Source: an uncultured Candidatus Saccharibacteria bacterium (GTDB lineage Bacteria > Patescibacteriota > Minisyncoccia > Phycocordibacterales > Phycocordibacteraceae). Taken from it: a stretch of DNA of 64,000 bases. Location of the stretch: NCBI GenBank assembly GCA_964650475.1, contig CAZYRK010000002.1:12087-76086 (forward strand), in the 5' to 3' direction. The position numbers were made by a program, and so were the translations under genes. Below, piece by piece: positions 8,064 through 18,835 of this stretch; positions within the stretch are counted from its first letter, which is position 1, and the number at the start of each line of letters is the position of its first letter. Under the pieces are notes generated by a model. The model worked only from the letters and a program-made list of their open reading frames with translations. It made no database searches and was not told the origin of the DNA.

Positions 8064-9260
8064 CTAGGCGCTAACTTTTGTAACAACACCAGCACCAACA
8101 GTCTTGCCTCCTTCGCGAATAGCAAAGTGCTGTTGCGCTTCAAGTGCTACAGGAGCTGTAAGCTTAACCTTGAAAGTAACTGTGTCTCCTGGCATAACCA
8201 TCTCCTTTCCTTCCGGAAGAGTAACCTCGCCTGTTACGTCCGTAGTACGGATGTAGAACTGAGGTTTGTAACCGGTGAAGAATGGTGTGTGACGACCACC
8301 CTCGTCTTTACCGAGGATATATACCTCTGCTTCAAAGTCTGTGTGTGGTGTTACCGTACCTGGCTTCACAAGAACCTGACCACGGTGCACGTCTTCTTTC
8401 TTTGTGCCTCGCAAGAGGATACCTGCGTTGTCGCCTGCCTGACCTTCTTGAAGCTGTTTGTTGAACATTTCAATACCGGTAACGGTCGTCTTTGTTGTTT
8501 CTTTGATACCAACAATCTCAACTTCCTCACCAACTTTGACTTGTCCTCGCTCTATACGGCCTGTTACAACAGTACCGCGACCTTCAATGGAGAAGATGTC
8601 TTCAATCGGCATAAGGAACGGCTTCTCAAGATCACGTACAGGATCCGGGAAGAACTCGTCCATTGTGTCGACAAGTTTCTTAACATTCTGTGCCTGTTCG
8701 TCATCTGCTGAAGTTGCTTCAAGTGCTTTCAAAGCGGAACCGCGAATAAATGGTGAGTCCTTGAAGCCCTGCTTCTCAAGGAGCTCTTTGATTTCTTCTT
8801 CCACGAGATCAATCATGTCTGCGTCGTCTACCATATCGGTCTTGTTAAGGAATACGATAATGTTTGGTACGCCAACTTGCTTTGCGAGAAGGATATGCTC
8901 ACGAGTTTGTGGCATAGCCCCGTCGGTTGCTGCGACCACGAGAACAGCTCCGTCCATTTGGGCGGCACCTGTAATCATGTTCTTAATGTAGTCTGCGTGA
9001 CCCGGAGCATCGATGTGCGCGTAATGGCGTTTCGGTGTCTCGTATTCCGAGTGGTGAAGAGCGATAGTAATACCGCGCGCCTTTTCTTCGGGCGCGTTGT
9101 CGATGTTCTCAACTTTTTCGCTACGAGCTTTATAGCCCGCTGATTCGTTGAGAGTAAGTACGTTTAGTATAGCCGCTGTGAGTGTTGTCTTACCATGGTC
9201 GACATGACCGATAGTACCAACGTTCACATGAGGCTTACTGCGATCAAATTCTGCTGCCAT
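8064..9260 (-). CDS. tuf: Elongation factor Tu
   Basis: 398 aa, [14 protein letters not shown] and DCPGHADY motifs. Confidence 0.97.
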
Positions 9261-9526: not shown

Positions 9527-11674
9527 TTACTTGCGTGATGCGATAATATCCAGCGCCACGTTCTGAGGCACGGTCTCGTAGTGATCGAATTCCATAGTCA
9601 TAGAACCTCGACCTTCCGTCATAGAACGCAAAATCGTTGTGTATCCAAACATTTCCGCAAGCGGTACCTTTGCATGAATCGCTTTGTTTATACCTCGGTC
9701 TTCCATTCCTTCTATCGCTCCGCGCTTCCCTGAAAGGTTTCCGGTGATGTCACCCATAAACTCCTCCGGAACAATAACCTCAACCTCCATTACAGGCTCG
9801 AGCAGTACCGGCTTTGCTTTTTGCACAGCCTCGTGGAAAGCCTGTGACGCTGCGATTTTGAAAGCAATCTCAGACGAGTCCACTTCATGGTATGAACCGT
9901 CGTACAGCTCAACAGAAACGTCAACAATCGGGTAACCTGCGAGCACACCCCTGTCCAAACCTTCACGAATTCCTTTTTCTACAGCCGGAATATATTCCTG
10001 CGGAATAACACCTCCCTTAATACTGTTGATGAATTCGAAATGGTCTTCGCGTTTAATATTTTTCGGAACCTTTGCACCTTCTTCAATCGGCTCAAGCGGT
10101 TTAATGCGAATTTTCACATGCCCGTACTGGCCACGCCCACCGGTCTGTTTGATGTATTTATTTTCAACTTCCGCAGAAGTCTTGATAGCTTCACGGTACG
10201 CTACCTGTGGCTTGCCAACATTTGCTTCAACATTAAACTCTCGCTTCATACGGTCAACAAGAATGTCGAGGTGAAGCTCGCCCATACCTGCGATAATAGT
10301 CTCCATAGTTTCATCATCTGTTGAAACACGGAACGTCGGATCTTCATCGGATAGTTTGTGAAGAGCGATTCCAAGCTTTTCCTGATCGGCTTTGGTCTTC
10401 GGCTCAATACGCAAAGAAACAACCGGCTCCGGAAAGATTATCTCTTCCAAAACAATCGGGTGCGCTTCGTCACAAAGAGTATGAGATGTTTTTGTATCTT
10501 TCAGTCCAACCGCCGCCGCAATCTCACCGGCAAAAACCTTTTTTACTTCCTCACGCTTGTCCGCTTGAAGTCGCACGATACGCCCGATGCGCTCTTTGGT
10601 TCCCGTATTTGCATTGTATACATACGAACCAGCCTCAAGCGTCCCTGCGTAGACACGAAAGAAAGTAAGTGTCCCAACGAAAGGGTCGGTTTGGATTTTG
10701 AATGCGAGCGCTGTGAACGGTTCGTCATCTGATGGTTTACGCTCGATTTCTTCACCGCTCTTCGGGTCTATACCTTTAACTGGTGGCAAGTCTACAGGCG
10801 ATGGAAGATAGTCCGCAACAGCATCGAGCACCGGCTGTACACCTTTGTTTTTCAAAGCAGAGCCCGTAAACACAGGAAAGATTTCATTTGAAATTACAGC
10901 TTTACGAAGAGCGCTCTTAAGCTCTTCAAGAGAAGGCTCGTTTCCTTCAAGATAAGCGCTCATAAGATTTTCGTCTTGCTCTACAATACGCTCAACCAAT
11001 TCTGCTCGGTACTTCTTTGCATCTTCTTTTAGATTTTCCGGCACCTCAATAATCACAACTTCTTCACCCATGTTTCCTTCGAAATGAAAAGCCTTCATTG
11101 TGAGCAGATCTACAGCTCCTTCATGTTCGCCTTCCTCACCTATCGGTATTTGCATACGCACCGCTTTTTTGGAAAGACGGTCTTCAATGCTTTTATATGA
11201 ACGCTCGAACGACGCTCCAGTACGATCGAGTTTATTTATGAAACACAATCGAGGAACATTTGCATCGTCTGCGTAGCGCCAGTTTGTTTCTGTTTGCGGT
11301 TCAACACCTGAAACACCGTCGAAAACAACGACAGCACCATCGAGTACACGCATAGAACGCTGAACCTCTGCGGTAAAGTCGATGTGCCCTGGGGTGTCAA
11401 TAATATTAAAACGGAACTTCTTGGACATATCTTTTTTATCCATTTCATCTGTCTTGCTCCAGAAGCATGTAATGGCAGCGGAGGTTATTGTGATACCTCG
11501 CTCACGTTCCTGCTCCATCCAGTCTGTTGTTGTTTCTCCTTCATGAACTTCACCAATTTTGTGTTGGCTACCTGTATAGAAAAGAACACGTTCAGATGTA
11601 GTTGTTTTACCGGCGTCAATATGTGCAATGATGCCGAAGTTGCGTACTTTTTCAAGCGGATAATCTCGATTCAT
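9527..11674 (-). CDS. fusA: Elongation factor G
   Basis: 715 aa, [13 protein letters not shown].. G-domain, full-length EF-G architecture. Confidence 0.97.
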
Positions 11675-11876
11675 AGATAATTGTTACAAAAAATAAGATG
11701 CTCCGACGGTTTTACCAAAACGCTTACACATATGAAAACATATTATCTTTCCATACAACAAGCGAGTGGCTAAAAAGACCGCCAAAAGCGTTGCTTAGAG
11801 GATAACCTAACTACCATAAAATGCAATCTTATATACAAAAATTGTCCGAAGCAACCGAAACGCATACTGTTTTCCT

Positions 11877-12281
11877 TTAGTGATTTAGCTTCCCGCTAGG
11901 GTCAATATGTGTAATACAGAAAAATTGTTGTTTTTGATAACCAAACACGCGAAACAGCTTGTCTGACTCGACACGAAAATGAAAATAATACTGTTCCATA
12001 AGATTACCCTCATAAGTGCTCTGCGTACTTATTAAATTGAAGTTTGGAGCTCCTTGTTTTTCAAACGTTAGCCCCTTTTTTCTTGAGAGATTCGCAAACT
12101 GCTTCCATGTTAATTTTTCCACATATTGCAGTTTGTGTAAAAAAATTTTTGCTTGCTCCTTATTTAAGGGCCAGAACGAATACTTTTTATCAAGCGAGCA
12201 GTCACTTATGGAAAAACAAATTTTTTCTTCTGCGTATTCAAGATTAATTTTTGTTGATACGTCGTGTTCGTCCATAGGCAA
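11877..12281 (-). CDS. Hypothetical protein; candidate toxin partner of the upstream Panacea-domain gene
   Basis: 134-aa ORF 13 nt downstream of the DUF4065 gene on the same strand. The C-terminus YYFHFRVESDKLFRVFGYQKQQFFCITHID loosely resembles RelE/ParE/HigB-type toxin C-termini. No confident family call. Confidence 0.35.
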   Translation of the reverse strand: MPMDEHDVSTKINLEYAEEKICFSISDCSLDKKYSFWPLNKEQAKIFLHKLQYVEKLTWKQFANLSRKKGLTFEKQGAPNFNLISTQSTYEGNLMEQYYFHFRVESDKLFRVFGYQKQQFFCITHIDPSGKLNH

Positions 12282-12294
12282 GGAAAAACCCGAC

Positions 12295-12759
12295 CTATTT
12301 ATTCAATAACGGGCTGTAATACTCTTTAAGGGCTTTGTTTGAAATGATTTGACTCGATGTTTTGTTTGCTTCTTTCCATGGAGTATGAGCATGGGTAATA
12401 TTAACGAGCTTGCTTGCGGAATAACCACCGAAAGTGTTCCAGATTATTTGAACAACTTTTTTATCCTCTTCGGAAAGCGATGACTTGCCGTCATCAATAA
12501 TCGGATTACTGCCATTACTTCGATATTTTTTATAAACACGCGAAACAACCGGTCCGTACTCCCACGCTTCAATATCATCAGAAAAAAGTGCCCTACCTAA
12601 TTTTGCAATATAATATGCCTGCGCAAAATATAATATCTTTTGTAATTTAAGATTTGTGATTCCTTCGCGTTCCTGATTATCGCCGACAAGCTCTTTTGAA
12701 GCGAGATGGATGAAATATTTTGCAACATTGTCGGCTGTGTAAGTTATTTTTTTAGCCAT
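12295..12759 (-). CDS. Panacea-domain (DUF4065/SocA-like) antitoxin-family protein
   Basis: ..NLKLQKILYFAQAYYIAKLGRALFSDDIEAWEYGPVVSRVY.. matches the DUF4065 core. The likely start is the internal MAKKITYT (12759); the ORF extends to 12822. Confidence 0.65.
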   Translation of the reverse strand: MAKKITYTADNVAKYFIHLASKELVGDNQEREGITNLKLQKILYFAQAYYIAKLGRALFSDDIEAWEYGPVVSRVYKKYRSNGSNPIIDDGKSSLSEEDKKVVQIIWNTFGGYSASKLVNITHAHTPWKEANKTSSQIISNKALKEYYSPLLNK

Positions 12760-12858
12760 ATATAAACTATATCTTGCTGAGTAACAAAAGCCAACAAAAT
12801 CCCGGCAATCATCATTGTGCATAAGTAAAGCGCGCGTAGTTATATATTGTTCAGCACA

Positions 12859-12898
12859 CCGGGCTACTTAGGGGTCGCCCCCCCCTAAGTAGCCCGGG
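12859..12898. repeat. 40-bp hairpin element, copy 1 (flanks hicAB)
   Basis: CCGGGCTACTTAGGGGTCGCCCCCCCCTAAGTAGCCCGGG. The same core is repeated at 13363-13400 in the same orientation. Confidence 0.7.
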
Positions 12899-12905
12899 AT
12901 GTTTA

Positions 12906-13100
12906 CTATTTTTTACTTATGCCTATTATACCGAGGTCATTACAAATTTTTTTCGCAAGAAAGTTATTTATCTCATTATGTCTTGGAACGGTGGATAATT
13001 TTTTAATGGTTGGATTGAGATACACGCTATGCTTTGCACCCTCCCGCAAAAATATACACCCACATTTTATAAGATGTTTTATGAGGTCAGTCCTTTTCAT
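12906..13100 (-). CDS. hicA: HicA-family mRNA interferase toxin
   Basis: 64 aa, MKRTDLIKHLIKCGCIFLREGAKHSVYLNPTIKKLSTVPRH is close to the HicA consensus (..GSHhxF.hP....tVP.H). Confidence 0.8.
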   Translation of the reverse strand: MKRTDLIKHLIKCGCIFLREGAKHSVYLNPTIKKLSTVPRHNEINNFLAKKICNDLGIIGISKK

Positions 13101-13360
13101 TAGATGGAGACAATGAGATTCTCTTTTATAATTTTTTGCTTGCTATTTGACTTATACATCAAACGGTTTGTCTCCAGCACCAAAAAAAGTGCGTCTTTAA
13201 GATTTTCTTTTGTCTCACTCAGTGTGGCACCTTGAGTATTCACGCCGGGGACTTCTTCAATCCACCCAGAGTACCACTTTCCATCTTTTTTATAGTTTGC
13301 TGTAAATTGTCTTTTCATATACATAGTATACATTACATTAATATATAGATGCGAGCCCAC
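13100..13360 (-). CDS. hicB: HicB-family antitoxin
   Basis: 86 aa, ..YKKDGKWYSGWIEEVPGVNTQGATLSETKENLKDALFLVLE is the HicB/UPF0150 fold signature. The stop overlaps the hicA start. Confidence 0.7.
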   Translation of the reverse strand: MGSHLYINVMYTMYMKRQFTANYKKDGKWYSGWIEEVPGVNTQGATLSETKENLKDALFLVLETNRLMYKSNSKQKIIKENLIVSI

Positions 13361-13362
13361 GG

Positions 13363-13400
13363 GGGTTACTTAGGGGTCGCCCCCCCCTAAGTAACCCGGG
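13363..13400. repeat. 40-bp hairpin element, copy 2 (flanks hicAB)
   Basis: GGGGTTACTTAGGGGTCGCCCCCCCCTAAGTAACCCGGGG has an identical loop and core, with compensatory stem changes versus copy 1. Confidence 0.7.
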
Positions 13401-13406
13401 GTGTGA

Positions 13407-13709
13407 TTATTGTCTGGCGTAGCACCCCATAAGCTCCGCGACTGTGATTATGTGCCCCTGCATTTCTGAAAGTACAGTGTCTTTTGTTACCCTTTCTTTA
13501 AGAGAAAGATTTGTATCAAGTGCGTACAGGCTGAAAAAATAACGATGCTCTTTCGGCTCATACTGCGGTGGCGGGCAATGTCCGGTATAGCCATTTTTGC
13601 CGGAACCGTTTGCCCCTTGTGTTCCAAGAATGGTGCCTACGGACAATTGAAAGCGGTGGAGATATGTTTTCACCATCGCACGTGTAGCGCTCGGGGATAT
13701 AATCACCAT
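13407..13709 (-). pseudogene. PEBP/YbhB-YbcL family protein, 5'-truncated remnant
   Basis: ..GYTGHCPPPQYEPKEHRYFFSLYALDTNLSL...GHIITVAELMGCY matches the C-terminal two-thirds of YbhB-type PEBP. The N-terminal ~60 aa are missing, and only 112 nt separate it from the rpsG stop. Confidence 0.5.
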
Positions 13710-13763
13710 TTGAGAATGCGGTTGAGACGAGTGCCGTTTGTATATGTTTATGTTAGCCCAACG

Positions 13764-13797
13764 AAAGGGGCGCGCGACAAAGTCGCGCGCCCCTTTC
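13764..13797 (-). terminator. Hairpin after rpsG
   Basis: AAAGGGGCGCGCGAC-AAA-GTCGCGCGCCCCTTTC. Confidence 0.45.
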
Positions 13798-13821: not shown

Positions 13822-14301
13822 CTACCAAGCAAAGTGCGCAAAAGCCTTGTTTGACTCCGCCATGCGGTGCATGTCGTCTTTCTTTTTAACTGCGTCTCCT
13901 TCACCTTTAGCCGCGAGCAGAAGCTCTTCTGCGAGTTTTTCAGACATTGGTCGTCCTTTTTTGTTGCGTGCTCCGTTTATTATCCAACGAAAAGCCAGTG
14001 CGAGTCTGCGCTGTTGCGGAACTTCGCGAGGAACCTGATAGTTTGCACCACCTACACGACGAGAACGAACCTCCATAAGAGGAGAAACATTGCGTATCGC
14101 CATTTCAAAAGTTTCAAGCGCGTCAATCTTTGTTCCCTCTTCGTTTTTAAAGTCGAGACTTCCAAGAGCATCGTACACAACCTTGCGTGCGATATCTTTC
14201 TTTCCGTCCAACATAACAGCGTTAATGAAACGGGTAAGCGTTTCAGAACCGTATTTAAGATCGGGGTTCCATGTGCGGGGATTTTTAATTGGGTGTCTCA
14301 T
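13822..14301 (-). CDS. rpsG: 30S ribosomal protein S7
   Basis: 159 aa, S7-like (..FINAVMLDGKK..ARKVVY.A..), follows rpsL. Confidence 0.9.
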   Translation of the reverse strand: MRHPIKNPRTWNPDLKYGSETLTRFINAVMLDGKKDIARKVVYDALGSLDFKNEEGTKIDALETFEMAIRNVSPLMEVRSRRVGGANYQVPREVPQQRRLALAFRWIINGARNKKGRPMSEKLAEELLLAAKGEGDAVKKKDDMHRMAESNKAFAHFAW

Positions 14302-14310
14302 ATTAAAATA

Positions 14311-14718
14311 TTAGTTCGGTTTTTTAGCTCCGTATCGTGAGCGTCCGCGACGGCGCTTGTCTACACCAGCAGCGTCGAGTTTACCTCGAACGATAGTGTA
14401 TTGCACGCCGATGTCTTTAACGCGACCACCGCGAAGAAGCACAACGGAGTGTTCCTGAAGGTTGTGACCTTCTCCCGGTACATACGCGGTAACTTCCATA
14501 CCGTTTGTAAGACGTACACGTGCGATTTTTCGAATAGCAGAGTTCGGTTTGCGAGGAGTCTTTGTGGTTACTTTTGTACACACACCTCTTTTAAAAGGAG
14601 ATGGGTAATTCGTCGGTCGGTTTTTAAGAGCATTGAAACCACGCGAAAGCGCAACGACTTTTGTCTTGCGGGTTTTGTTTTTGCGTGGCTTGTGTGAAAG
14701 CTGATTGATTGTTGACAT
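14311..14718 (-). CDS. rpsL: 30S ribosomal protein S12
   Basis: 135 aa, [13 protein letters not shown]...[16 protein letters not shown] is S12-like. Confidence 0.93.
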
Positions 14719-14782: not shown

Positions 14783-15039
14783 CGTCACGGCTTGCCGACA
14801 CTACAAAACCCGATAGTCAGTTAGGATTTAATATTAAAACTATTACAATTTTTTGTCACTATATCTGCCACGCAACTAAGGTGTGTAACTTAATTGCCAG
14901 CACGAAACAGAAACAAAACATATTGTGGATAATCACACTACTTTTATTGACTAAAAAATATCATTAATATAATATTCAAGATACGAAATGCCGGGGAGCG
15001 AGCGTGATGCCGCGATCCGGTTTTTCTATTTGTTTTTGC

Positions 15040-15828
15040 TCAAGGTAATACTTTTATTGCCTCGACCTTATCAAGGAACCTCTTTTTTAAAACTTTGGCA
15101 TTTCTGGGCGCACGAAATATTTTTTTATTAAGTATTCGCAACATAATTTCTTCATAAGAGTTTTTCTTAATTTTCTTTTTAAGATATTTACATTTAATCG
15201 CATATGCGAACAAATCCGCAATTTGCTCCTCTATATCATGATTCTTTTTTGAAACAAAGGATATTGAAGTTATTGTCTCTTGAACTTTTTTATATGATAC
15301 TTTTGGTACAGTGAGTCCCTCTGATAGAAAATACCCGAGTGCGCGATGAAAATAAAAATCTTTTTCTGCTGTCGCGCTTTCAATAACAACCTCTCCGCGT
15401 GAATCATGAGAAAGCAATATCAATATGAAATTGCGAATCATTGATTTTGCCGTTTCTTTGTAGATTTTTGTTTCGTCCCAACCTAATTTTTTGGTTTTCT
15501 CCTTATCAACAATTGCAAAAAACATTTTGAATTTCGAGTCGATCAAAAGAGCCTCGAGATCATGCAAGAAGTTTTTGTGAATATCCTTGCCTCTTAAAAT
15601 TGCAAATTCGCCATCTCTACGTCCAATTTCACGTGAGTGAAAAATTATATCTGTGTGTCCCCAATATTTAAACTTAATTTAATCTGCGAATATTTTTATG
15701 CGCGCTCGCTCAGAATCACTAACCGAGCAGCAAGACAAAACATACAAAGGGGAAGGATGTTTATAGCTTGCATGTCCGAGCTCATCTATAAATAGTTTGT
15801 ATGCGATTTTGTCAAAATGGTTTGTCAT
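15040..15828 (-). pseudogene. DUF3800-family protein interrupted by in-frame TAA
   Basis: N-part (15682-15828) reads MTNHFDKIAYKLFIDELGHASYKHPSPLYVLSCCSV.., then TAA at 15679-15681, then the same frame continues ..KYWGHTDIIFHSREIGRRDGEF...FAIVDKEK...VVIESATAEKD...ADLFAYAI, which is a DUF3800 architecture. The downstream part alone starts at TTG. Confidence 0.55.
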
Positions 15829-16066
15829 AACAAGACAATATATATAATATCAGCAGTATCCAAACATCTCTAATTTAAGTCTAGAAATATAAATATTGGT
15901 AGCTGGTAGAAAACTGCGACAAAAAAACAATGCTATTTTAGCCCTTTATTGAAAGGGCTTTTCTCGCGGTTTTTGAAACAGCCATTGCTTCATATTATCC
16001 TTATATAATCAATTTTACTCATATTGGCTGAAAGATTATCCACCTATGTTCTAAAAAGGGTGTCGC

Positions 16067-18835
16067 ATGTACACCATAAAGATATTAAAATGTAAACCAA
16101 TGCGCGCACATAAGCCCCTACTCTTTTCACTCGCAGTTTTTATCTTTGCTGTTTTGGTAGGCGTGCCTCAAGTCTCTCGGGCAGATACAAATCCAAATAT
16201 TCCACAATGCCCAAGATTCGAAAAAACCGGGCTGCGCTGGACAAATCCAGACCCGCATCGAAACACTTTCAATCAGACTTTTCCTAAAATAGATATGACT
16301 GGGGATATTTTTATATCTAATTATCCTGGTATTTTTATGCAGGACGGTGGCACGTACTCTTTTCCTTTTCATATACCCAGTTTTGGTTATGTGGTTATTG
16401 CAGGTACAAACTGTTCCAAAACAAAAGGCGACCTGTACTTTCTTCCGAAAGATTCCAGCGCACGCCAATTCGTAACGAGCTTCCATGGAGCCGGAGATAT
16501 TTTTGGGGGTTCACCTTACAGCCCACCGGACATTACTTATTTCCAATGGAAAAAATCCGGGCAATACGAGCTTGATATCCAAGAAAAGAATTCTGACACC
16601 GGCACATATGCGCTTACAAAAACCATTCACTTTACAGCAATAAACACCGACAACCCTTGCTCTGCCCCCAATTCCTGTTTTGACAATGTTCTTTTTATCC
16701 CGGGCACCGAAGCGAGCAGACTGTACTACAAAGACGGTTTTGGTGAACACCAAGTATGGGAACCGGATTTTTATACCGATATACCGTACCTAGAAATGAA
16801 CCAAGACGGCACGAGCAAACACACGCTGTACACGAAAGACATTATCGGGAGTTTGTATGGGAACACTACGGTCGAGAAAAAGATTGCTCTGCAATACTTA
16901 AACCAGGACGGAGTACAGGTCTACGGAAACTTCGAAAAGTTTATGAACGGGCTCGTAGCTTCAAGCACAATTAAGCAATGGTCTGCTTACCCCTACGACT
17001 GGCGCTACAGCGCGGACGACATTGTAAACAACGGAACTCTCACAGAAATGCCAAACGGCACCTTAAAACGCGTTTATATTGAAAAAGAGATCGAAAACCT
17101 TGCGTCAAGCTCCCCGACGGGGAAAGTAATGATTGTGGCACATTCAAATGGTGGTTTGGTTGCAAAAGAGCTTTTACAGAAACTCTCCAACGACGGCAAG
17201 CTAAAGCTTGTTGACAAGTTCGTTATGGTTGCCACTCCGCAATGGGGTACACCGGAAGCTATCGGCGTACTATTGCATGGAGACGGACAGACTCAAGCGC
17301 ACGGGCTTCTTATGAGCAGTGCCGAGACCCGAAGAGTAACAAAAACAATGCCCGGAGCTTACGACCTTTTGCCATCCTGGGAATATTTTCAGCAAATTAC
17401 TATTCCGGTTATCACTATCGATGCAAACGGCTCCGCCACAAACGACCTTGCAAAAGCTTTCGGAACAAAAATATCTTATTTCACAGAATTCGCAAATTTT
17501 CTTGAACACGGGTTTGGATATTTCCCCGCCCCGCAAGACACGGACACAGCACTGCGCACACCTATAGCTCTTTCCAAAAAACTCATCGATAAAGCAAAAG
17601 ACATGCATTTTCTTATAGACGTAGCGACCAGATGGTCGGATCTTTACGGTATCGACGTAACAGCGATAGCAGGCTGGGGGCAAAACACAGTAAAAACACT
17701 GGCGTACTCTACCGGGCAAAAAACAATCTGCACAAACCTCACCGCCGATGTTATAAACGCTTTTGAACCTCCGTGCCATACCTACTATTATCTCGAACAC
17801 ACACCGGTAACAACCCAAGGTGGAGACGGCACCGTCGTTTATCAAAGTGCTGTTGGAAATATTATTCACGAGTTGTTTTTTGATTCTTTTCTTTTCAAGA
17901 AAATCTTCCACGAGAAAATAGTCCACCAAAACATAACCTCCGCACCGCCAATACAAAATGTAATTAAAGACATTCTTACAAACAAAAAAGTACAGAAAAC
18001 AAACTACATAACAAAAACAAAACCTTCTTCCGGTGAAACTTTCCACGAAATCCGTATAAGCTCTCATTCTCCGGTAAATATTCTTATAACTTCCGCAAAC
18101 GGGGAACAGAGCGGTGTTGTCCATATTCCCGGCACAGACTTCTCTGGAACAAAAATGGATATTCTAGGAAGCTCCGTGCAGGTTTTCGATACAGAAGAGT
18201 ATGTAAGCCTTCCAAAAAATGGAAACTATAAAGTGGTTGCGCGGGGTCACGGAAACGGCACAGCAACAATACTTATTGAAACGATAGCCCAAGACGGAAC
18301 TGCGAGCACTACAAATACGTTTGCGGAAATTCCGACCACGGCAAGCTCCACCATTACTTTCTCCGTATCAAAAGGACAGCCTACAGCACCTATAATAGAC
18401 CTCACAGGAACCGGCAAACACACTTTTACCATACCTGTTGGCAACGACCCGCTCGCATATGTTCTTTATATGAAAAACGCGATTAAAGAAATGAATCTCT
18501 CTCGCGGTGAGCACTTTGTTATCAATGCAAAGCTCTCCGTGATAGAAATGCAGATAAAAAGCTCCAAAGAAACATCGCGATTTTTCAGAAAGGTGTGGCG
18601 AGGACACAGACCATACGGCAAACTGAGCGCCTGGCGAAACAAACAGATTAAATTTGAGCTTGCTGTTCTTACTCGCTATATCAACCACCAGTTTTCTCTT
18701 TCTGCGCGTATCGATAAAAATAAAGACATGCGCTCGCATCGGCACTTCGCCCGATACAATATGCAACCACACATAAGTGCGACGCAAGCTGAAACCATTA
18801 TCGATATGATCAACCGCCTAAAAAACTTAATCTAA
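16067..18835 (+). CDS. Secreted alpha/beta-hydrolase (lipase/esterase-like, GHSxG-type nucleophile elbow) with large C-terminal region
   Basis: 922 aa with a signal peptide (MRAHKPLLFSLAVFIFAVLVGVPQVSRA) and IVAHSNGGLVAKELL nucleophile motif typical of PGAP1/lipase-class hydrolases. The last ~120 aa are unusually basic. Confidence 0.6.
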   Translation: MYTIKILKCKPMRAHKPLLFSLAVFIFAVLVGVPQVSRADTNPNIPQCPRFEKTGLRWTNPDPHRNTFNQTFPKIDMTGDIFISNYPGIFMQDGGTYSFPFHIPSFGYVVIAGTNCSKTKGDLYFLPKDSSARQFVTSFHGAGDIFGGSPYSPPDITYFQWKKSGQYELDIQEKNSDTGTYALTKTIHFTAINTDNPCSAPNSCFDNVLFIPGTEASRLYYKDGFGEHQVWEPDFYTDIPYLEMNQDGTSKHTLYTKDIIGSLYGNTTVEKKIALQYLNQDGVQVYGNFEKFMNGLVASSTIKQWSAYPYDWRYSADDIVNNGTLTEMPNGTLKRVYIEKEIENLASSSPTGKVMIVAHSNGGLVAKELLQKLSNDGKLKLVDKFVMVATPQWGTPEAIGVLLHGDGQTQAHGLLMSSAETRRVTKTMPGAYDLLPSWEYFQQITIPVITIDANGSATNDLAKAFGTKISYFTEFANFLEHGFGYFPAPQDTDTALRTPIALSKKLIDKAKDMHFLIDVATRWSDLYGIDVTAIAGWGQNTVKTLAYSTGQKTICTNLTADVINAFEPPCHTYYYLEHTPVTTQGGDGTVVYQSAVGNIIHELFFDSFLFKKIFHEKIVHQNITSAPPIQNVIKDILTNKKVQKTNYITKTKPSSGETFHEIRISSHSPVNILITSANGEQSGVVHIPGTDFSGTKMDILGSSVQVFDTEEYVSLPKNGNYKVVARGHGNGTATILIETIAQDGTASTTNTFAEIPTTASSTITFSVSKGQPTAPIIDLTGTGKHTFTIPVGNDPLAYVLYMKNAIKEMNLSRGEHFVINAKLSVIEMQIKSSKETSRFFRKVWRGHRPYGKLSAWRNKQIKFELAVLTRYINHQFSLSARIDKNKDMRSHRHFARYNMQPHISATQAETIIDMINRLKNLI

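Follow-up and report, generated by a model that had tools for sequence, protein, structure and literature searches.

A Panacea antitoxin and its probable RelE-fold RNase partner in the str operon of an uncultured Saccharibacteria bacterium

Which kind of protein accompanies a stand-alone Panacea antitoxin in a bacterium of the Candidatus Saccharibacteria, and what could this partner do inside an operon of the translation machinery, are the questions raised by two adjacent genes, panA and panT, from an uncultured member of this group (GenBank assembly GCA_964650475.1, contig CAZYRK010000002.1). The window, i.e., the whole stretch of 64,000 nucleotides (nt) that was analysed, covers the contig positions 12,087 to 76,086, and all coordinates given below are counted from its first letter. 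The two genes probably form a type II toxin–antitoxin (TA) cassette of the PanAT kind, in which the Panacea protein PanA would directly bind and check PanT, an RNase of the RelE fold, according to a four-step mechanism. The kind of system is already known, and the pair adds a new Patescibacteria branch to it. The main features of the locus are the following:

12295..12759, minus strand: panA, stand-alone Panacea (DUF4065) antitoxin of 154 amino acids (aa)
11877..12275, minus strand: panT, predicted 132-aa toxin of the RelE/BECR fold, assigned to the MAG6450 / PB-BECR1 / PanT-T1 superfamily; alternative TTG start at 12281
12275..12297, minus strand: intergenic stem-loop, in which the panA stop UAG pairs with a CUA just ahead of the panT AUG
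12766..12794, minus strand: weak match to a sigma-70-like promoter (TTGGCT-17-TATAGT), whose end lies 7 nt ahead of the panA ATG

The panA–panT gene pair

Both open reading frames (ORFs) described in a first-pass annotation of this DNA are present and located on the minus strand, and the two peptide strings quoted there are found in their translations. The Panacea core attributed to ORF 12295-12759 is fully borne out by the hidden Markov model search then proposed for DUF4065, which aligned PanA with all 113 positions (1-113/113) of the Pfam profile PF13274 SocA_Panacea (E 1.1e-24, 87.9 bits for a cut-off of 25.7 bits); in addition, phrog_1281 matches residues 5-151 of the protein (E 4e-48). 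Some gene callers choose a longer start at ATG 12822, which yields a protein of 175 aa, but ATG 12759 is the likely start because the homologous antitoxins measure 155-162 aa.

The limits of the second gene needed a correction. Nearly all of about 200 PanT homologues, sharing 54-77% identity, have a length of 131-133 aa and begin with MD or ME, so that panT most likely starts at ATG 12275 and encodes 132 aa behind a 19-nt spacer, instead of starting at TTG 12281 with 134 aa and a 13-nt spacer. Of the earlier description of a 134-aa gene at 11877-12281, lying 13 nt from panA, the ORF and its co-direction with panA are thus retained but the start and the spacing are not. No support was found for the two plus-strand ORFs (12016-12309 and 12044-12247) inside panT.

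The association of both genes is remarkably constant. A scan of the genome collection with the close-family profile (A1), which recovers only close Patescibacteria relatives, yielded 27 loci with panT, all in Patescibacteria metagenome bins labelled Paceibacterota, Parcubacteria, Kaiserbacteria, Taylorbacteria, Vogelbacteria and Zambryskibacteria. In each of the intact GTDB loci (25/25), a PanA homologue occurs directly upstream of panT, leaving 6-26 nt between its end and the toxin ATG, and the two loci devoid of PanA hold toxin fragments only. Similarly, a Panacea gene adjoins panT upstream in three contigs whose surroundings differ considerably, and PanT relatives of 23-38% identity (P0151, P0163, P0145, P0202) also sit after a Panacea gene. 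The pairwise identities of PanA and PanT co-vary (r = 0.87), and the flanks of the related loci are mostly unrelated. Such a tight co-inheritance across very different genomic contexts points to a selection acting on the pair. A tblastn search of the phage and plasmid collections with PanT gave no matches. Two Panacea-plus-small-protein pairs occur within 3 kb on a metagenomic contig of 1.73 Mb (L039:2422-5288), the first made of a PanA of 161 aa and a protein of 138 aa, the second of a PanA of 162 aa and a protein of 129 aa, which suggests tandem paralogous PanAT cassettes.

The short spacer separating both genes folds into a stem-loop with a free energy (dG) of -8.7 kcal/mol in the window vs -2.3 kcal/mol for shuffled sequences, and most of the close relatives fold alike. 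In an alignment of 24 loci, 70% of the cells are paired, as compared to 32-57% in slid controls, and the covariation score of 0.313 (0.186 after shuffling) was reached by none of 500 shuffles; seven of the nine pairs change on both sides. From its structure, this stem-loop is a candidate element for translational coupling or attenuation.

Fold and family of PanT

The AlphaFold2 model of PanT, built with 27 homologues (predicted local distance difference test, pLDDT, 79.7; predicted template modelling score, pTM, 0.75), consists of a strand followed by two helices, an inserted strand with two further helices, and three antiparallel strands. Helices are packed on a three- to four-stranded antiparallel sheet, which corresponds to the RelE-type fold, and the earlier hunch that the C-terminus of the downstream protein loosely recalls strands of the RelE/ParE fold was right. 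Five residues, H99, R101, R109, D125 and the last residue H132, are invariant in the close family of about 200 homologues; among the distant relatives R109 and D125 are still invariant, and H99 and R101 nearly so. RelE-type RNases carry a catalytic residue at the extreme C-terminus. The retention of the C-terminal H132 and of the histidine/arginine set makes the conserved residues of PanT fit both these RNases and the H-R-H triad of the PB-BECR1 domain, and H99, R101, R109, D125 and H132 are accordingly proposed as putative catalytic residues. PanT is thus probably a RelE-like endoribonuclease that would cut RNA and act on translating mRNA, presumably in a ribosome-dependent manner.

With respect to sequence families, the first-pass statement that the downstream protein has no obvious family is correct for Pfam, where a scan of PanT returned no family at E up to 1, but not for NCBIfam, PADLOC and PHROGs. 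The NCBIfam model NF046006 ("MAG6450 family") matches PanT over positions 3-100 of 103 with 40.3-40.4 bits, a borderline pass of the curated cut-off of 40 bits, so that the match covers nearly the whole model and yet makes PanT a peripheral, borderline member. The PADLOC profile of NsnC aligns with the whole 132-aa protein (E 7e-8), but only by its positions 171-276 of 284, and phrog_8366 also matches PanT. Searched exhaustively with the profile, 1.84 billion cluster representatives yielded only 83 clusters at E up to 1e-3, in which all the relatives are stand-alone proteins of about 125-155 aa. NF046006 recognises 41 of 51 distant PanT relatives, and NsnC's C-terminal domain 35 of them.

The PanAT systems were defined by Kurata et al. 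(2022, PMC8832971), who listed 88 toxin clusters, some with RelE/HigB-2/YoeB matches in HHpred, others with MqsR-like or ParE partners. Cluster T1, the first one listed in the Panacea data set, is distributed in Mycoplasma (including M. agalactiae 5632), Spiroplasma, Firmicutes, Cyanobacteria, E. coli and the Salmonella phage Emek, and its toxins are predicted and labelled as "mRNase"; the data set is without Patescibacteria (PMC8832971). The E. coli T1 toxin is annotated by PGAP as "hypothetical protein" only. The Emek pair corresponds to YP_006560565/YP_006560566 of Salmonella phage vB_SemP_Emek, with the toxin at L042:1643-2059. The family profile of the window toxin (A2) aligned with YP_006560566 over 109 columns, at an hhalign probability of 97.6% (E 3.8e-12). 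The idea of a novel, unclassified toxin domain thus finds no support, the family being already catalogued as a Panacea partner (PanT T1). By this hhalign alignment to Emek the window toxin is homologous to T1, and this homology makes it a divergent, Patescibacteria-restricted branch of a recorded Panacea-partner superfamily. The Emek toxin also matches NsnC's C-terminal domain (E 4e-6) and, weakly but over the full length, NF046006. In a joint alignment both toxins keep F100-R101, D125 and the C-terminal histidine, and in both systems a gene for a toxin of about 130-140 aa follows that of a stand-alone Panacea protein, the two overlapping or being separated by a short gap. However, the two toxins share about 22% identity only, and the Emek genes overlap by 62 nt and are devoid of the stem-loop, whereas the window pair is separated by a hairpin spacer.

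The link with NsnC leads to the Menshen system, in which the C-terminal PB-BECR1 domain of NsnC is a BECR/RelE-YafQ-like RNase domain with an H-R-H triad (Li et al. 2025, PMC12065111). PanT resembles this domain by its BECR/RelE-YafQ-like fold and its H-R-H type set of residues. In Menshen, however, NsnC possesses an N-terminal inactive-PIN (inPIN) domain and its gene follows those of NsnA (ParB-DUF262) and NsnB (ABC ATPase), whereas PanT has neither the inPIN domain nor the NsnA/NsnB neighbours and adjoins panA, encoding a Panacea antitoxin, and fusA instead. The locus was accordingly rejected as a Menshen (NsnABC) system, only NsnC's C-terminal domain being matched.

Neither Pfam nor a profile search of the PDB detects a similarity of PanT to the classical RelE, HigB, YoeB and YafQ toxins, and hhalign on single sequences, run with profile A2 against HigB and YoeB, gave no significant match. 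Compared to these toxins, PanT also possesses about 40-50 extra residues, which correspond to the N-terminal strand and to an insertion (a strand and two helices) at 63-95, and its antitoxin is a Panacea protein in place of RelB, HigA, YefM or DinJ. No curated RelE/ParE/HigB/YoeB/YafQ sequence model matches PanT, so that its membership in the RelE/ParE (BECR) superfamily rests on the fold and on the PB-BECR1 link. The M. agalactiae protein MAG6450, which gave its name to NF046006, has been described only as a conserved hypothetical protein. Since M. agalactiae has a T1 pair and NF046006 is named after a protein from the same species, we infer that T1 and the MAG6450 family could be the same thing. 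PanT T1, the MAG6450 family and Menshen PB-BECR1, which are unlinked in the cited literature, become connected here, and the 132-aa protein gains a concrete assignment as a predicted RelE-fold, probably ribosome-dependent RNase under Panacea control. The tests performed on T1 are inconsistent, and the Patescibacteria branch, which keeps every conserved candidate catalytic residue, would be a good representative for biochemical work.

Proposed mechanism and rival explanations

The mechanism that we favour comprises four steps. Both genes would be expressed from a single transcript, on which the stem-loop covering the panA stop and the bases ahead of the panT AUG may limit the translation of the toxin or couple it to that of the antitoxin. 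PanA would then mask PanT by direct binding through its Panacea core, as expected from the published stand-alone PanAs. Upon loss or triggering of PanA, free PanT would cut RNA, most likely ribosome-bound mRNA, and translation would stop, the cleavage depending presumably on H99, R101, R109 and D125 together with the C-terminal H132. The cassette as a whole is mobile and shares its low-GC island, an insertion separating rpsG from fusA, with a HicAB module. Stable complexes and a type II behaviour characterise the PanATs tested so far, and stand-alone Panacea proteins neutralise their toxins by direct binding (PMC8832971).

Several observations weigh against this mechanism. No Pfam RelE/ParE model matches PanT, the PDB sequence profile search with the PanT family alignment gave chance matches only, and the comparison of the PanT model with PDB and BFVD by Foldseek ranked the RelE/BECR-type families at the top but at E values >0.1. 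Of the T1 toxins assayed in E. coli, those from Emek and E. coli MOD1 showed no toxicity, and the toxicity of that from Clostridium cadaveris was not relieved by its PanA (PMC8832971). Finally, sigma-70-like sites are no commoner in the region than in shuffles, and the promoter match ahead of panA is a lead only.

Among the other explanations, the one that survives best is layered on the same biochemistry and concerns the purpose of the cassette: its main role could be an abortive-infection defence against phages, with the Panacea protein as the trigger sensor. This possibility, which is tentative and on balance doubtful, draws on the toxin domain being common to the Menshen antiphage effector, on the sensory role proposed for Panacea by Ernits et al., and on the mobile island, which houses another TA module next to the cassette.

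It is unlikely that the 132-aa protein is no toxin at all, whether because the pair is a remnant that has decayed or is non-toxic, or because the protein serves PanA in an accessory or regulatory role. This explanation would agree with the lack of toxicity of two of the three T1 members assayed in E. coli, and with two related loci (L029:3001-3394 and L030:2998-3391) in which the toxin gene is frameshifted and the upstream panA intact. These frameshifts lie in homopolymer runs, however, and may reflect either a decay of the toxin or an assembly error. In the window, panT has its full length and no disruption, none of the putative catalytic residues varies among the 200 or so homologues, and the co-inheritance with PanA over very different contexts is tight. 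The non-toxic Emek protein, moreover, is without the equivalents of H99 and R109, both replaced by alanine, which may explain its behaviour in E. coli.

A third explanation, by which PanT would keep its fold and its PanA partner but poison DNA gyrase in the manner of ParE, is allowed by the fold as such but highly improbable, because the RNase members score above the ParE members in the ranking of structure matches and the conserved residues speak against it as well. The least credible of all is a SocAB-like type VI arrangement with PanA as an adaptor handing the toxin to ClpXP for degradation, for although SocA is the protein in which the Panacea domain was originally noticed and SocA_antitoxin (NF047745) is the sole NCBIfam match of PanA, this match reaches 77.3 bits vs an equivalog cut-off of 190, the partner, of RelE fold, does not correspond to SocB, and the published PanATs behave as stable type II complexes; a SocAB system is thus disfavoured.

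Beyond the RNase cassette favoured above, a broader and rather speculative reading, which we consider improbable as a whole, would have the Patescibacteria branch represent the catalytically complete (H-R-R-D-H) form of one RelE-like RNase superfamily, equipped with its own covarying coupling hairpin and uniting T1, the largest, uncharacterised cluster of Panacea partners, with the MAG6450 family and Menshen PB-BECR1. If so, the position in the rpsL-rpsG-fusA-tuf operon could tie the supply of toxin to the expression of the translation machinery.

The low-GC island between rpsG and fusA

The surroundings of the pair, defined from the composition profile, the ORF map, the Pfam matches and the recurrence in other samples, comprise the following elements:

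11600..13400: island of low guanine-plus-cytosine (GC) content with hicBA and panAT, 36-39% GC vs 45-50% in the flanks, within the str operon, with rpsG on one side and fusA on the other
8064-9260, minus strand: tuf
9527-11674, minus strand: fusA
12859..12897: palindromic, GC-rich hairpin of 16 bp, between the hicA stop and panA
12906-13100, minus strand: hicA, directly upstream of panA, encoding a HicA of 64 aa (PF07927, E 4e-9)
13100-13360, minus strand: hicB-like gene for a HicB/UPF0150-like protein, overlapping hicA by one base
13363-13397: second copy of the palindromic hairpin, with a 27-nt core at 13367-13393
13407-13709, minus strand: frameshifted remnant of the PEBP/YbhB family, whose 100-aa ORF covers Pfam positions 68-135 only
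13763-13797: GC-rich, terminator-like perfect hairpin of 16 bp, right after the rpsG stop
13822-14301, minus strand: rpsG
14311-14718, minus strand: rpsL

The hicBA/panAT island is an insertion which splits rpsG from fusA in the rpsL-rpsG-fusA-tuf operon, which is otherwise conserved, and the cassette it carries is mobile; TA cassettes are thus shown to invade a core ribosomal operon in a lineage with reduced genomes. Other samples with an identical toxin share the rpsG-hicBA-panAT-fusA arrangement. The island lies in the orientation of the operon, so that a read-through transcription of the TA genes and fusA is conceivable. The hicBA genes (12906-13360, minus strand) constitute a second TA module adjoining panA upstream, and HicAB does not accompany panAT at the other loci.

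Both palindromic hairpins (12859-12897 and 13363-13397) contain an identical 27-nt core, TACTTAGGGGTCGCCCCCCCCTAAGTA, occurring 502 nt apart, and bracket hicBA. This core is present in two exact copies in the 64 kb of the window, none being expected by chance, and none of the 40 related loci examined contains the motif. The twin hairpins may be cassette boundaries or terminator-like elements; integron attC sites were considered and dropped by eye, as the hairpins are without conserved core sites. Scanning the island for Rfam families and tRNAs revealed no relevant feature, and the sole Rfam match of the hairpin at 13763-13797 was a terminator part of CsrC, far below threshold.

Just upstream of the PEBP/YbhB remnant, an N-terminal-like stretch, FSNGDYIPERYTCDGENISPPLSI, occurs in another frame, and the GC content of this remnant is host-like. 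A second stretch of low GC content (32-35%), which may be another inserted element, extends from 14800 to 16200 upstream of rpsL and contains a 175-aa ORF (15040-15567) with a weak DUF3800 match (E 0.016).
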